Shown: positions 6,103 through 39,711 of the stretch, one piece after another | Layout of the letters: the number at the start of each line of letters is the position of its first letter | How positions within the stretch are numbered: the stretch's first letter is position 1 | From: a phage | DNA length: 39,711 bases | Sequence record: PZ379184.1 | Reading direction: 5' to 3' (one strand) | Translations under genes and position numbers: made by a program | The notes under the pieces: model-generated | What the model was told of the DNA's origin: nothing | The model's input: only the letters and a program-made list of their open reading frames with translations | The model's database searches: none

Positions 6103-6125
6103 CCTAAACTATCACTATAGGATTA
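6103..6125 (+). promoter_or_regulatory. Phage RNAP promoter (phi1.1 position)
   Basis: AAACTATCACTATAGGATTAG; consensus match. Confidence 0.75.
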
Positions 6126-6165
6126 GACTCAAGGTCATGACTCAAAGTCGTGGCCTTCATGATTA
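6125..6165 (+). promoter_or_regulatory. RNase III processing site candidate (R1.1-like): AGACTCAAGGTCAT..GTGGCCTTCATGATTA
   Basis: Resembles recalled T7 R1.1 (ACTCAAGGTCAT...GTGGCCTTTATGATTA); same element recurs at 13224-13261 and 36548-36588. Confidence 0.65.
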
Positions 6166-6195
6166 ACCCTAACTCATTCAATCAGGAGCTACACC

Positions 6196-13053: not shown

Positions 13054-13218
13054 GTGTTTAAGAAACTTAAAGCTCGCTACCATCGGTTCATGTACAAATG
13101 GTGGAGTGATGAAGCAGCCTGCCTGTCCAACATTCTGGGAGACCAAAGGTTCGACTCTAAGGCATGGAAGAGAGCTAACCGGAAGTTTATGTATCACTTC
13201 TTGCGTACAGACTTCTAG
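13054..13218 (+). CDS. Hypothetical small basic protein (about 55 aa; 66 aa if started at GTG 13018)
   Basis: SD GGAGGA 8 nt before GTG 13054; start uncertain. Confidence 0.35.
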   Translation: MFKKLKARYHRFMYKWWSDEAACLSNILGDQRFDSKAWKRANRKFMYHFLRTDF

Positions 13219-13223
13219 GTCTA

Positions 13224-13261
13224 GACTCAAGGTCATTCACATCGAGTGGCCTTTATGATTA
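13224..13261 (+). promoter_or_regulatory. RNase III processing site candidate (R4.7-like)
   Basis: AGACTCAAGGTCATTCACATCGAGTGGCCTTTATGATTA; copy of the element at 6125 and 36548. Confidence 0.65.
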
Positions 13262-21575: not shown

Positions 21576-21598
21576 ACTAAACTATCACTATAGGGAGA
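21576..21598 (+). promoter_or_regulatory. Phage RNAP promoter (phi10 position), full consensus TAAACTATCACTATAGGGAGA
   Basis: Only copy with GGGAGA initiating sequence; precedes the major capsid gene. Confidence 0.85.
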
Positions 21599-21700
21599 CC
21601 AAGAGAAAGACTCAAGGTTTCCCTATTACTTCAGTCCATACGGATTGGGCATACAGTAAGTAATAAACTTTATCTTTCAATTGAATAGGAGAATTATCAT

Positions 21701-22750: not shown

Positions 22751-23013
22751 CGACCTTTAAGGCCCTCTCTACAGAGGGTCCTACCTTAGAGACGTATAGT
22801 TCTACGGTGGGAACCAGCCTGAAGGTTGACTTCCCTGAGCTTTCAGATGTGACCGATTGGTCGCTGCTTGAGGTGACTACGCCTGATGGTGTTAGCTACT
22901 CCCGTAGAACCAACAGTCTCTACTTCAAGGCCACCTCTGGCGTGGAAGGTCTGGTGATTGTTGGGTATGACGGTACGCCTGTGCGTTCCTTCAACGTATC
23001 TTTCACAAACTAA
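21701..23013 (+). CDS. 10B: Minor capsid protein 10B, predicted product of a -1 frameshift at GGTTTTC (22723-22729)
   Basis: The -1 frame is open from the slip site through track ORF 22807-23013 with no stop; mirrors T7 10A/10B. Confidence 0.6.
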
Positions 23014-23015
23014 TT

Positions 23016-23058
23016 GAAACCCCTTGGGTGCCTTCGGGTGCTTGAGGGGTTTTTTTGC
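23016..23058 (+). terminator. Tphi-like rho-independent terminator
   Basis: AAACCCCTTGGGTGCCTTCGGGTGCTTGAGGGGTTTTTTTG; resembles recalled T7 Tphi. Confidence 0.85.
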
Positions 23059-23071
23059 TTAAGGAGGGACT

Positions 23072-23161
23072 ATGGTCCTTATTTACACAGGGTTAGCACT
23101 ATTCGTCTTATTCTGGGCGTACCTGCTGTCCAGCTCACCGTCTAGCGCCTATGACCGTTAA
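23072..23161 (+). CDS. Hypothetical small membrane peptide (29 aa) between Tphi and gene 11
   Basis: Strong SD AAGGAGGG 5 nt before ATG; hydrophobic core LALFVLFWAYLL. Confidence 0.4.
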   Translation: MVLIYTGLALFVLFWAYLLSSSPSSAYDR

Positions 23162-23172
23162 GGAGTAAACCT

Positions 23173-23739
23173 ATGGCTCAATACATTCCACTGAATGCTA
23201 ACGATGACTTAGATGCCATCAACGATATGTTAGCAGCTATCGGTGAACCAGCAGTCCTACAGCTTGACGAAGGTAACGCTGACGTCTCGAACGCTCAACG
23301 TATCCTGCATCGTGTCAATCGTCAGGTCCAAGCTAAAGGCTGGAACTTTAACATCAACGAAGCTGCTGTCCTGACACCTGATGTCCAAGACAATAGGATT
23401 CGATTCCTGCCGTCTTACCTTCGGGTCATGACTGCTGGTGCTACCAGTTACTACAGCAACATGGGGGGCTATCTCTATGACCTGTCCACTCAGTCCACGA
23501 CCTTCACTGGACCAATTACAGTCGAACTGGTGGAGATGAAACCGTTCGCTGAGATGCCTGTAGTATTCCGTGACTACATCGTTACCAAGGCTAGCCGTGA
23601 GTTCAACGCTAAGTTCTTCGGTAGCCCAGAGTCTGAACTGTACCTTCGTGAGCAGGAAGCAGAACTCTACCAGCAGGTGATGGAGTACGAGATGGACACT
23701 GGTCGCTACAACATGATGTCCGACATCGGGAGGGACTAA
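23173..23739 (+). CDS. 11: Tail tubular protein A (T7 gp11 homolog)
   Basis: INDMLAAIGEP, NAQRILHRVNRQVQAKGWNFN, YIVTKASREFN and MEYEMD match recalled T7 gp11. Confidence 0.92.
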   Translation: MAQYIPLNANDDLDAINDMLAAIGEPAVLQLDEGNADVSNAQRILHRVNRQVQAKGWNFNINEAAVLTPDVQDNRIRFLPSYLRVMTAGATSYYSNMGGYLYDLSTQSTTFTGPITVELVEMKPFAEMPVVFRDYIVTKASREFNAKFFGSPESELYLREQEAELYQQVMEYEMDTGRYNMMSDIGRD

Positions 23740-23966
23740 TGGCTAGTCACAACCTGAAGATTCACCGCCAGCACTTTGGTCCGGTACAACTGGGTCTAAA
23801 GACAGCAGAGCTGAGACTTAACGACCGGGACTTTAAGGTTGGCGATTGGCTTATCCTGAATGAGTGGGACAACGGGTATACTGGACAACAGGTAGCACGT
23901 AAGGTTGTCCATGTGGCTGACGTTGGTGACATCGCTGAAGGATACGTCCTAATCAGTATGATTTAA
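23739..23966 (+). CDS. ASCH-like (PUA-fold) small protein, 75 aa, inserted between tail genes 11 and 12
   Basis: Carries GLKTAELR, which fits the ASCH-superfamily GxKxxExR signature; SD GGGAGG; ATG overlaps gene 11 stop. Confidence 0.6.
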   Translation: MASHNLKIHRQHFGPVQLGLKTAELRLNDRDFKVGDWLILNEWDNGYTGQQVARKVVHVADVGDIAEGYVLISMI

Positions 23967-23975
23967 GGAGGGCCT

Positions 23976-26333
23976 ATGCCACTTATCACACAAAGCATAA
24001 AAAATCTTAAAGGTGGAATTAGCCAGCAGCCTGACATACTGAGGTTCTCAGACCAAGGCGAGGCGCAGGTTAACTGCTGGTCATCAGAGAGTGATGGCCT
24101 CCAGAAGCGTCCACCTACAGTCTTCAAGCGACGTCTTAACATCGACGTTGGGAGCAACCCTAAGTTCCACCTGATTAATCGTGACGAGCAGGAGCAGTAC
24201 TATATAGTGTTCAATGGGTCCAACATTCAGGTAGTTGACTTGAGCGGTAATCAATACTCAGTGTCCGGTGCGGTAGACTACGTTAAGTCCTCCAACCCAC
24301 GAGATGACATCCGTGTCGTTACCGTGGCAGACTATACGTTCGTCGTTAACCGTAAGGTTGTCGTCAAAGGTGGAAGCGAGAAGTCACACTCTGGTTATAA
24401 CCGCAAAGCACGAGCTTTAATTAACCTGCGTGGTGGGCAGTATGGTCGAACCCTTAAAGTTGGAATCAACGGTGGCGTTAAGGTCTCGCATAAGCTACCA
24501 GCAGGTAATGATGCCGAGAATGACCCACCTAAGGTGGACGCTCAAGCCATTGGGGCAGCTCTGAGAGACCTTCTTGTTGCTGCTTACCCTACCTTCACGT
24601 TCGACCTTGGGTCTGGCTTCCTGTTAATCACTGCCCCTTCAGGGACTGACATTAACTCAGTGGAGACGGAGGATGGTTACGCTAACCAGCTAATCAGCCC
24701 AGTACTCGACACAGTGCAGACAATCTCTAAGTTACCTCTTGCAGCTCCAAATGGGTACATCATTAAGATTCAAGGTGAGACCAACAGTAGCGCCGATGAA
24801 TACTACGTGATGTATGACTCCAACACTAAGACGTGGAAGGAGACAGTGGAGCCGGGAGTTGTCACTGGGTTCGATAACACCACAATGCCACACGCTCTGG
24901 TACGACAATATGATGGCTCCTTTGAGTTCAAGACTCTGGATTGGTCCAAGCGTGGTGCTGGTAACGATGACACAAACCCTATGCCTAGCTTCGTGGATGC
25001 TGCGATTAATGATGTGTTCTTCTACAGGAATAGGCTGGGGTTCTTGTCAGGCGAGAACGTAATCATGAGCCGTTCAGCCAGCTACTTTGCGTTCTTCCCT
25101 AAGAGTGTGGCGACACTGAGTGATGCTGATCCTATTGATGTAGCTGTAAGTCACCCTCGAATCTCAATCCTTAAGTATGCCGTTCCGTTTAGCGAGCAGC
25201 TACTACTTTGGTCGGATGAGGTTCAGTTCGTGATGACAAGCTCTGGGGTCCTTACCTCGAAGTCTATCCAGCTTGATGTAGGCTCAGAGTTTGCTTTAGG
25301 AGATAATGCCAGACCGTTCGCTGTAGGACGCTCAGTCTTCTTCTCAGCTCCTCGTGGGTCATTCACCAGCATTAAGCGATACTTCGCTGTAGCTGATGTG
25401 TCTGATGTGAAGGATGCTGATGATACAACCGGTCACGTATTGTCCTACATCCCTAACGGGGTGTTTGACATTCAGGGGACAGGGACTGAGAACTACATCT
25501 GCGTCAACTCTACAGGTGCATACAACCGAATCTACATCTACAAGTTCTTGTTTAAGGACGGCGTACAGCTTCAAGCCTCTTGGTCACACTGGGAGTTCCC
25601 TAAAGCTGATAAGATTCTGGCGTCTGCGTCGATTGGCTCTACCATGTTCATTGTTCGTCAGCACCAAGGCGGCGTGGACCTTGAGCACCTTAAGTTCATC
25701 AAGGAGGCAACTGACTTTCCGTTAGAGCCATATAGACTCCACGTTGACTCCAAGGTGTCTATGGTAATACCAATTGGCTCATACAACGCTGACACCTATA
25801 AGACTACGGTTGACATTGGTTCTGCTTATGGTGGAAACGCTCCGTCTCCCGGTAGGTACTATCTGATTGACAGTCAGGGTGCCTACGTGGACCTTGGTGA
25901 ATTGACCGACATCTCAACTGTGGCTGTACTCAATGGTGATTGGTCAGGACGTACAGTGTTCATCGGACGGTCTTATCTGATGTCCTACAAGTTCTCACGG
26001 TTCCTGATTAAGATTGAAGACGAGAGTGGCACTCAGTCTGAAGACACTGGTCGTCTACAGCTTCGTCGTGCTTGGGTAAACTACAAGGACACTGGCGCTC
26101 TTAGACTCATTGTCAGAAACGGTGAGCGGGAGTTCGTGAACACCTTTAATGGGTACACCCTTGGTCAGCAAACCATAGGGACTACCAACATTGGGGATGG
26201 TCAGTATCGATTCGCTATGAATGGCAACGCATTAACCACGAGTCTAACCTTAGAGTCCGACTATCCTACCCCGGTGTCCATCGTTGGGTGTGGCTGGGAG
26301 GCGTCATACGCTAAGAAAGCTCGTTCCGTCTAA
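23976..26333 (+). CDS. 12: Tail tubular protein B (T7 gp12 homolog, 785 aa)
   Basis: Size and position; assignment not checked residue by residue. Confidence 0.9.
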   Translation: MPLITQSIKNLKGGISQQPDILRFSDQGEAQVNCWSSESDGLQKRPPTVFKRRLNIDVGSNPKFHLINRDEQEQYYIVFNGSNIQVVDLSGNQYSVSGAVDYVKSSNPRDDIRVVTVADYTFVVNRKVVVKGGSEKSHSGYNRKARALINLRGGQYGRTLKVGINGGVKVSHKLPAGNDAENDPPKVDAQAIGAALRDLLVAAYPTFTFDLGSGFLLITAPSGTDINSVETEDGYANQLISPVLDTVQTISKLPLAAPNGYIIKIQGETNSSADEYYVMYDSNTKTWKETVEPGVVTGFDNTTMPHALVRQYDGSFEFKTLDWSKRGAGNDDTNPMPSFVDAAINDVFFYRNRLGFLSGENVIMSRSASYFAFFPKSVATLSDADPIDVAVSHPRISILKYAVPFSEQLLLWSDEVQFVMTSSGVLTSKSIQLDVGSEFALGDNARPFAVGRSVFFSAPRGSFTSIKRYFAVADVSDVKDADDTTGHVLSYIPNGVFDIQGTGTENYICVNSTGAYNRIYIYKFLFKDGVQLQASWSHWEFPKADKILASASIGSTMFIVRQHQGGVDLEHLKFIKEATDFPLEPYRLHVDSKVSMVIPIGSYNADTYKTTVDIGSAYGGNAPSPGRYYLIDSQGAYVDLGELTDISTVAVLNGDWSGRTVFIGRSYLMSYKFSRFLIKIEDESGTQSEDTGRLQLRRAWVNYKDTGALRLIVRNGEREFVNTFNGYTLGQQTIGTTNIGDGQYRFAMNGNALTTSLTLESDYPTPVSIVGCGWEASYAKKARSV

Positions 26334-26357: not shown

Positions 26358-26380
26358 CCTTAACTATCACTATAGGGACT
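26358..26380 (+). promoter_or_regulatory. Phage RNAP promoter (phi13 position) within a 12-bp inverted repeat
   Basis: TTAACTATCACTATAGGGACT; flanked by AAGGGCCTATAG (26341-26352) and CTATAGGCCCTT (26379-26390). Confidence 0.8.
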
Positions 26381-26409
26381 ATAGGCCCTTAAGGTTATAA
26401 GGAGACTTT

Positions 26410-36542: not shown

Positions 36543-36547
36543 GTGTT

Positions 36548-36588
36548 AGACTCAAGGTCATTACTATATGTAGTGGCCTTTATGGTTA
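36548..36588 (+). promoter_or_regulatory. RNase III processing site candidate (R18.5-like)
   Basis: AGACTCAAGGTCATTACTATATGTAGTGGCCTTTATGGTTA; third copy of the conserved element. Confidence 0.65.
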
Positions 36589-36643
36589 ACACTAACTAGT
36601 GGAGGCAACTCTACGTGAAATCTGATAAACCGGGAGGGCAACT

Positions 36644-39545: not shown

Positions 39546-39608
39546 TCTCACAGTTCAAGAACCTCAAGTCTCCCCATAGGCCCTCTTTCAGTCCAGACAA
39601 AGGCCCTA
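39546..39608. repeat. Right copy of the terminal repeat, starting TCTCACAGT as in T7; only 63 bp of it present here
   Basis: 39558-39608 equals 1-51; TCTCACAGTTCA matches the recalled first bases of the T7 genome (TCTCACAGTGTA). Confidence 0.7.
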
Positions 39609-39711
39609 TGAAGCGGCGCACGAAAAACGCGAAAGCGTTTCACGATAAATGCGAAAACTTCATGCCACCTGTTGAGTAGTGAGGTTAAACACCCAACATG
39701 CAACTGAAATC
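39609..39711. other. 103 bp of unassigned sequence after the truncated terminal repeat, not found elsewhere in the window
   Basis: Identity to the left end stops at 39608; contains palindrome AAACGCGAAAGCGTTT. Confidence 0.5.

Follow-up and report, generated by a model that had tools for sequence, protein, structure and literature searches.

The 39,711-nt phage sequence PZ379184.1, the whole of which is referred to here as the window, encodes a 75-residue protein of the DUF3850 family between the genes for tail tubular proteins A and B (gp11 and gp12; Table 1). A nucleotide search with positions 23000–24800 returned 222 phage records, almost all of them Kayfunavirus, at 90–99% identity, and the window is a genome of these K1F-like phages (Autographiviridae, Studiervirinae). 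Genes 11 and 12 adjoin one another in T7, with a gap of 23 nt, and also in K1F. The initial annotation had noted this arrangement for T7 and had placed between the two genes a short open reading frame (ORF) with a strong Shine-Dalgarno (SD) sequence and a stop-start overlap, a description with which the sequence agrees exactly.

The ORF, seen both in a program-made ORF list and in the sequence itself, begins with ATG, and the computed mass and pI of its product are 8.5 kDa and 6.4. The upstream gp11 ORF (188 residues) terminates with TAA at 23737–23739, the last nucleotide of which is the first of the DUF3850 start codon (ATG, 23739–23741), producing a 1-nt overlap, TAATG (junction sequence GGGAGGGACTAATGGCT). 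The SD sequence GGGAGGG (23728–23734) is separated from the start codon by a 4-nt spacer, with GGAGG 5 nt 5′ of the ATG; at the other end of the gene, the stop codon (TAA, 23964–23966) falls within AAGGAGGG, the SD sequence of the gp12 ORF (23965–23972). Minus-strand ORFs overlap the gene and are without any support. Rfam and tRNA scans of the whole window gave no match, so no hidden RNA element is indicated at this locus.

A promoter for the phage RNA polymerase, (C)TAAACTATCACTATAGG(G/A)A, occurs in ten copies in the window, as identified from a repeat family and a motif scan; its core, ACTATCAC(T/C)NTAGG, lies on the plus strand at 2788, 6108, 8867, 11234, 17754, 20593, 21581, 26363, 33639, and 38953, and the full consensus is about CTAAACTATCACTATAGGGA. 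The motif scan found no copy between about 21577 and about 26359, no terminator-like site was found between gp11 and gp12 (the terminator at 23016–23053 precedes gp11), and neither a sigma-70-like promoter nor a phage promoter or terminator was found flanking the DUF3850 gene. Since no promoter or terminator separates them, gp11, the DUF3850 gene, and gp12 appear to form one late transcription unit, which would be reached only by read-through of the T-phi-like terminator, as in T7. The arrangement of these signals predicts that the DUF3850 gene is made late, co-transcribed with gp11 and gp12, and translationally coupled to gp11.

Table 1. Features at and around the gp11/gp12 junction of the window
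Feature	Position	Strand	Size	Basis
DUF3850 (minimal ASCH/PUA-like) gene	23739..23966	+	75 aa	
GLKTAELR, codons 19–26; ASCH GxKxxExR cavity motif (G19, K21, E24, R26)	23793..23816	+		conservation, model
Translation start region; SD GGGAGGG, 4 nt, ATG overlapping gp11 TAA	23728..23741	+		sequence, K1F junction alignment
Tail tubular protein A (gp11)	23173..23739	+		PHROG 446 'tail protein', E 9e-68; 50% identity to T7 gene 11
Tail tubular protein B (gp12), own SD AAGGAGGG	23976..26333	+		PHROG 457, E 1.5e-281
T-phi-like intrinsic terminator 5′ of gp11	23016..23053	+		17-bp stem, then T run
Nearest upstream phage RNA polymerase promoter, before capsid gene	21577..21600	+		promoter repeat family, motif scan
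Next phage RNA polymerase promoter, before gene 13	about 26359–26382	+		promoter repeat family, motif scan

Family, fold and conserved residues

The initial annotation had read the segment GLKTAELR as a fit to the GxKxxExR signature of the ASCH superfamily, and had proposed profile hidden Markov model (HMM) searches and structure prediction as checks. Both bear the reading out. The Pfam DUF3850 model (PF12961) matches residues 4–73 over profile positions 2–76 of 77 with an E value of 3e-19 (69.4 bits against a gathering cut-off of 22.9), and the ASCH model (PF04266, PUA-like clan) also scores above its gathering threshold (E 1.4e-5; 26.2 bits against 21.2). The ASCH match spans profile positions 2–61 of 103, i.e. 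the N-terminal 60%, and the C-terminal part of that domain is absent from the window protein. In PHROGs the protein falls into phrog_986, labeled 'RNA-binding protein' (E 8.7e-35), and a sequence search of the PDB identified the solved DUF3850 member 3IUW, with E values of 1.7e-10 for the single sequence and 5.8e-23 for the family profile. A search of NCBIfam gave no match, and a partial PADLOC match to PDC-M07B (14.7 bits, E 0.006) was treated as noise.

An AlphaFold2 model built from 74 diverse homologues (mean pLDDT 95.8) consists of a strand, a helix (residues 10–17), and four further strands, forming a bare 75-residue barrel of the ASCH/PUA-like type that is nearly identical to 3IUW. Foldseek gave a TM-score of 0.92 to 3IUW, matching the fold of the solved family member, and the best structural neighbors after it are ASCH proteins (PH0355, YqfB, PF0470, 3S9X, and ZmASCH). 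The GxKxxExR motif lies in the model between helix 1 and strand 2 (residues 23–27), the same α1-β2 position at which it lines a cavity in ASCH proteins (PMC6803910). In an alignment of 269 DUF3850 domains, the motif residues G19, K21, E24, and R26 are 96–99% conserved; positions conserved in at least 95% of the domains are H4, K7, G19, K21, E24, R26, N28, D29, R30, G35, D36, L40, E42, G49, V70, and S73, and T48, H58, and Y69 are about 90% conserved. The window protein retains all of these residues. As judged from the alignment and the model, DUF3850 is a minimal (~75-residue) form of the ASCH/PUA-like β-barrel, of which the window protein is typical in sequence and predicted fold.

The domain was found by tblastn in 559 phage records, which include Rtpvirus and other T1-like phages, Kagunavirus, P2-like phages (orf91), Listeria, Enterococcus, Streptococcus, Gordonia (where it is labeled 'ASC-1 transcription coactivator'), and cyanobacterial phages, and jumbo phages. 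An exhaustive HMM search, in which non-phage proteins were included, returned 18,654 DUF3850 clusters at 50% identity with E values up to 1e-3; the family is enriched in phages, prophages, and integrative and conjugative elements. The closest homologue outside the kayfunaviruses, ORF68 of Erwinia phage Midgardsormr38 (66% identical), lies in a lambdoid nin region. At about 60 non-kayfunavirus viral loci, where the two nearest genes in each direction were matched to Pfam, the neighbors include P2 replication protein A, NinB, NinG, primase/helicase, Dam (D12), N6/N4 methyltransferases, HNH, Mu Gam, and CII; orf91 of L-413C directly follows replication gene A, and the Rtpvirus copy precedes a DNA helicase. 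Among the 25 most frequent of the 48 matched neighbor families there is neither a tail nor a head family. The tail-operon position thus appears, from these gene neighborhoods, peculiar to the kayfunaviruses, and it reflects where an insertion is tolerated and expressed more than it reflects function.

Fusions of DUF3850 to Bac_DnaA_C (locus L072, the only such fusion among the viral loci) and to LexA_DNA_bind (protein P0105) were found, and fusions to ParB-CTPase domains in prophages have been described (PMC12704722 and its preprint). A second Pfam domain was found in none of the ten long DUF3850 proteins examined, and fusions are a weak lead for function. Many enterobacterial proteins of 150–400 residues, among them P0126, P0140, P0154, P0167, and P0213, have an N-terminal DUF3850 domain, beyond which long stretches match nothing in Pfam, and share a recurring ...NSPVIPDGWxLVPVEPT... 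motif. These long proteins presumably resemble the lambdoid Ea22-like early proteins.

Distribution and selection among kayfunaviruses

The median pairwise ratio of non-synonymous to synonymous substitution rates (dN/dS) among 14 kayfunavirus copies (the window and 13 relatives) is 0.13; the more divergent copy of LET1 was omitted from this comparison. The ORF is intact, with neither frameshift nor stop, in all 14 relatives examined (the 13 and LET1). By these values the gene is under purifying selection where it is present. Its GC content (48.7%, against 50.0% for the genome) lies at the 33rd percentile of windows of the same size, and base composition gives no sign of recent foreign origin.

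The type phage K1F has no DUF3850 gene at its gene 11/12 junction, where the gp11 stop and the gp12 start overlap as TAATG. Alignment of the two junctions shows the window to differ from K1F by a clean 237-nt insert, in agreement with the earlier description of the ORF as inserted between the tail genes. The 5′ end of the insert reuses the SD sequence and TAATG/ATG that start gp12 in K1F, and its 3′ end brings a second, similar SD and ATG (GGAGGGaCTAATG vs GGAGGGcCTATG); microhomology of the two sites could, on the evidence of this alignment, mediate deletion. In SH3 and many other phages gp11 and gp12 are separated by an 11–13-nt spacer, TAATAGGAGGTGATATG, with no DUF3850 gene.

The gene is present at 13 and absent at 11 of the 24 IMG/VR loci whose gp11 is of this type. 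Phage records in GenBank number 157 for the protein, at a minimum of 80% identity, and 218 for this gp11 type, i.e. roughly 70%, an approximate figure derived from the difference of record counts. Roughly 55–70% of relatives therefore carry the gene. In both neighbor-joining trees, one of gp11 and one of the initial 1200 nt of gp12, K1F and the contig L090, which lack the gene and whose gp12 and gp11 are 97.6–98.6% and 98.9% identical, are nested in a gene-positive clade, and therefore represent recent losses. Elsewhere in the trees, the gene-positive lineages GA2A-like L097 and LET1 are scattered among gene-negative ones. Because close relatives with 97–99% identical gp11 and gp12 lack it, the gene is dispensable for virion building, yet it is kept by selection where present.

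DUF3850 alleles diverge much faster than gp11. LET1 is 94% identical to the window in gp11, 58.7% in DUF3850, and 69% in gp12, and L110 (IMG/VR UViG_2700988881, not included in the trees) is 83% identical in gp11 and 46.6% in DUF3850. The L110 allele, at the same junction (positions 2067–2291), has E24 replaced by Asp, K7 by Ser, and the N28-D29-R30 motif replaced, which could reflect decay or a change of function. Independent acquisition of the LET1 and L110 alleles at one site was considered; the 5′ codons (MASH) and the central block that the alleles have in common point tentatively to common descent followed by rapid divergence.

Two further ORFs were seen in this part of kayfunavirus genomes. 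Enterobacter phage B1 carries a 158-residue hypothetical protein (ORF41, 24,315–24,791) between its DUF3850 gene (ORF40) and gp12 (PMC12785254), and the junction therefore looks like a site of repeated insertion. In the window, a GTG-start ORF of 68 residues (22807–23013, plus strand), situated between the major capsid gene and the T-phi-like terminator, matches PHROG 7473, of unknown function, with an E value of 4e-35. It is present in LM33_P1, LET1, and four of the compared loci (L003, L006, L009, and L013), and was not detected by tblastn in K1F, SH3, or L002, L005, L007, and L010–L012; by this patchy occurrence it is a second variable small ORF of the late region.

Elsewhere in the window, an approximately 50-nt element, TTAGACTCAAGGTCAT...GTGGCCTT(C/T)ATG(A/G)TTA, is repeated on the plus strand at 6123–6174, 13216–13261, and 36546–36597, two of the copies being just 3′ of promoters, and RNase III may process transcripts at these repeats, as it does at sites in T7. 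The sequence GGCCTGACTGATAGTCA(C/T)TAAC occurs three times (plus strand; 718–747, 1035–1064, and 1763–1792), each time just 5′ of an early ORF, and its copies are candidate host RNA polymerase promoters or operators of the left end. The exact terminal repeat is only 51 nt (1–51 and 39558–39608), with the ends diverging beyond it, and the terminal repeat of K1F is reported to be 179 bp, because of which truncation or chimerism of the assembly at its right end seems likely. Matches to phages stop at 39608 and the last 103 nt (39609–39711) are not kayfunavirus sequence; positions 39608–39660 match, with 100% identity, the right end of Mu-like prophages beside mom and com, which are inserted at various places in the genomes of 40 E. 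coli. This stretch is probably MuA-transposase library residue or adaptor, or an assembly artefact, rather than biology.

Proposed function

We consider it likely that the gene is a genuine, expressed accessory DUF3850 gene encoding a soluble, non-tail protein with a predicted cavity for a nucleobase derivative, a ligand that it probably processes. The cavity would be formed by K21, E24, and R26 together with the family-specific N28-D29-R30, D36, E42, H4, K7, and H58, and its occupant might be a nucleoside or nucleotide in free form, or else a base that single-stranded nucleic acid flips out. The protein could be a small enzyme that hydrolyzes or otherwise processes a modified base, with a role in nucleotide-pool or nucleic-acid housekeeping, or in counter-defense, during infection. 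We lean slightly toward a hydrolase or processing enzyme over a protein that purely binds, because the characterized stand-alone ASCH proteins are hydrolases (YqfB, PMC9599836; EOLA1, bioRxiv 10.64898/2026.08.01.741249; ZmASCH, as cited in PMC7641849), some 13 polar residues are near-invariant, and the pI is near neutral. The pI of 6.4, the enzyme-like conservation, and the fusions to DNA-binding domains likewise suggest that an enzyme or reader with a nucleobase pocket is at least as likely as a classical RNA binder.

Several observations weigh against this proposal. In the literature searched there was no experimental paper on any DUF3850 protein and no reported biochemical function. The YqfB mechanism is not simply transferable, because its Thr nucleophile is replaced by Glu and the C-terminal third containing Glu74 is missing, and murine EOLA1 was inactive in a structural study, as noted in bioRxiv 10.64898/2026.08.01.741249. 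Late expression from a tail operon is odd for a function in nucleotide metabolism, and the DNA-binding domains of DnaA-C, LexA, and ParB to which DUF3850 is fused would suit a sensor or reader no less than an enzyme. That the conserved residues cluster around a single pocket is deduced from homologous structures. Virion proteomics of gene-carrying kayfunaviruses yielded nothing usable in the literature searched: the sole study found, of phage B1, analyzed eight excised gel bands and does not report the DUF3850 protein, which does not exclude packaging, and the SH3 and SH4 virion proteomes (PMC4925675) are uninformative, gp11 and gp12 being directly adjacent in these phages (verified for SH3; for SH4 deduced from the published coordinates).

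A more specific version of the proposal, which we regard as speculative and rather improbable as it stands, is that DUF3850 is a phage-borne enzyme or sponge that would hydrolyze or sequester one specific modified nucleotide in the pocket of invariant residues (H4/K7/K21/E24/R26/N28-D29-R30/D36/E42), for counter-defense or salvage. One candidate ligand would be a base set free from host RNA or DNA that carries an N-acyl group or another modification; another would be an immune signal derived from a nucleotide. Recruitment of the protein would have taken place in many unrelated phages (T7-like, T1-like, P2-like, lambdoid, Listeria, Enterococcus, and Gordonia), and in kayfunaviruses it would be supplied late and possibly packaged and ejected with the DNA.

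The main rival to a processing enzyme, less likely in our estimation yet a serious contender, is a pure reader or binder, as the label 'RNA-binding protein' implies: the barrel would bind RNA or modified DNA, e.g. N6-methyladenine (m6A), and modulate host or phage nucleic-acid transactions with no catalysis. ASCH proteins were originally predicted to bind RNA (PMC7641849), and both the fusions to Bac_DnaA_C, LexA_DNA_bind, and ParB-CTPase and the presence of Dam and N6/N4 methyltransferases among the neighboring genes agree with such a role. However, no basic surface is evident from the sequence (pI 6.4), stand-alone ASCH proteins of the YqfB type showed no binding to nucleic acid (PMC9599836), and three invariant acidic residues, E24, D29, and E42, seem better suited to catalysis or to holding a metal than to contacting a nucleic-acid backbone.

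The position of the gene between gp11 and gp12, its translational coupling to the former, its late expression, and its tendency to track particular gp12 alleles could also mean that it encodes a small virion or tail-associated protein, such as a factor that assembles or decorates the gp11/gp12 tail tube or one that is ejected, with a place in the tail operon because its work is done there. T7-like virions do contain other small proteins, e.g. T7 gp6.7 and gp7.3. We nevertheless regard a tail role as improbable: K1F and L090 lack the gene despite near-identical gp11 and gp12, homologues elsewhere sit in replication and nin modules, with no tail family among the most frequent of their neighbors, and by its fold and conserved residues the protein belongs to a family of enzymes or readers whose more than 18,000 clusters include non-phage proteins. 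The earlier view of the gene as an accessory rather than a part of the tail thus agrees with its natural absence from these relatives and with the genomic context of the copies in other phages.

Patchy presence, repeated loss, and the divergent L110 copy, with E24 changed to Asp and the NDR motif lost, would be expected of a neutral hitch-hiker or decaying remnant from a temperate phage, functionless here and kept by linkage to essential tail genes. This seems very doubtful given the dN/dS of 0.13, the intact reading frames in 14 relatives, and the retention of all family-invariant residues; moreover, compact T7-like genomes shed useless DNA fast, and the clean K1F-type deletion shows that removal is feasible. 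A chance ORF is refuted: although a 75-residue ORF proves nothing alone in a window with 132 mechanical ORFs of at least 60 residues, the two HMM matches (E 3e-19 and 8.7e-35), the confident fold, the purifying selection, and the SD with start-stop coupling leave it practically no room.

Comparison with known systems

The DUF3850 gene of the window is already known, since an identical protein is in GenBank (100% identity in Escherichia virus ECG4) and orthologues are annotated, as 'RNA-binding protein' in RefSeq (e.g. LM33_P1) and as 'DUF3850' in other records (e.g. EPr2). The kayfunavirus orthologues of LM33_P1 (YP_009324512), ECG4, and Providencia phage EPr2 occupy the same locus, with 93–100% identity and the same start-stop coupling. 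The remaining interest therefore lies in the biochemistry of a very large phage-associated family, with enzyme-like invariant residues and a solved structure (3IUW), more than in this locus. The kayfunaviruses offer a natural experiment, in the form of near-isogenic phages with the gene (LM33_P1, ECG4, and the window) and without it (K1F).

3IUW, an 83-residue Enterococcus faecalis protein from structural genomics annotated as 'activating signal cointegrator', is 38–40% identical to the window protein, with which it shares H-x-L-K ... G-x-K-x-A-E-L-R-x-N-D-R ... G-D ... E ... T-G ... S. It has Tyr in place of H58; otherwise nothing of substance differs.

E. coli YqfB (PDB 1TE7, 9KYF, and 9KYH) is an amidohydrolase of free N4-acetylcytidine (ac4C) that uses K21, T24, R26, and E74 (PMC9599836). 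In a profile alignment its K21 and R26 align with K21 and R26 of the window protein, but the nucleophile Thr24 corresponds to Glu24, and the window protein accordingly lacks the YqfB nucleophile. The alignment covers only residues 6–52 of YqfB and the similarity is marginal (profile E 0.2–0.3); the C-terminal part of the 103-residue YqfB, with Glu74, has no counterpart in the 75-residue window protein, where the invariant E42 might stand in for Glu74 spatially.

The EOLA1/TRIP4-like clade of ASCH proteins has the same K21/E24/R26 triad in the α1-β2 cavity as the window protein. Glu at position 24 is absolutely conserved in this clade, and human EOLA1 is reported to deacetylate free ac4C via K21/E24/R26 (bioRxiv 10.64898/2026.08.01.741249). 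In contrast to the bare barrel of the window protein, the domain of this clade (about 150 residues) is decorated with helices, and EOLA1 (about 158 residues) has its barrel surrounded by additional ones. Where the clade has Ser/Thr at position 7, the window protein has Lys7, 97% conserved in DUF3850, and N28-D29-R30, D36, E42, and H4 are invariant residues of DUF3850's own relative to EOLA1. A further ASCH protein, ZmASCH, is a Mg-dependent single-stranded RNA nuclease according to PMC7641849, in which it is cited.

P2 orf91 and the DUF3850 genes of lambdoid nin regions belong to the same family and are likewise accessory genes of enterobacterial phages, and they are probably the donor pool of the kayfunavirus gene. 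Their hosts are temperate phages, in which they occupy early or replication regions, whereas the phage of the window is virulent and T7-like and has the gene in its late tail operon, and some forms carry C-terminal extensions (orf91 has 150 residues). The initial annotation had suggested a moron gene, which holds in part: like a classical moron, the gene is an extra, optional, and patchily distributed one between genes that are adjacent in relatives. Unlike a moron, which has its own promoter and terminator and a deviant GC content, it has none of these and would be expressed by translational coupling. Nor does it behave as expected of a T7-type virion protein, which should be present in every phage that builds the same tail; the DUF3850 gene is absent from K1F, L090, SH3, and 11 of the 24 IMG/VR loci.

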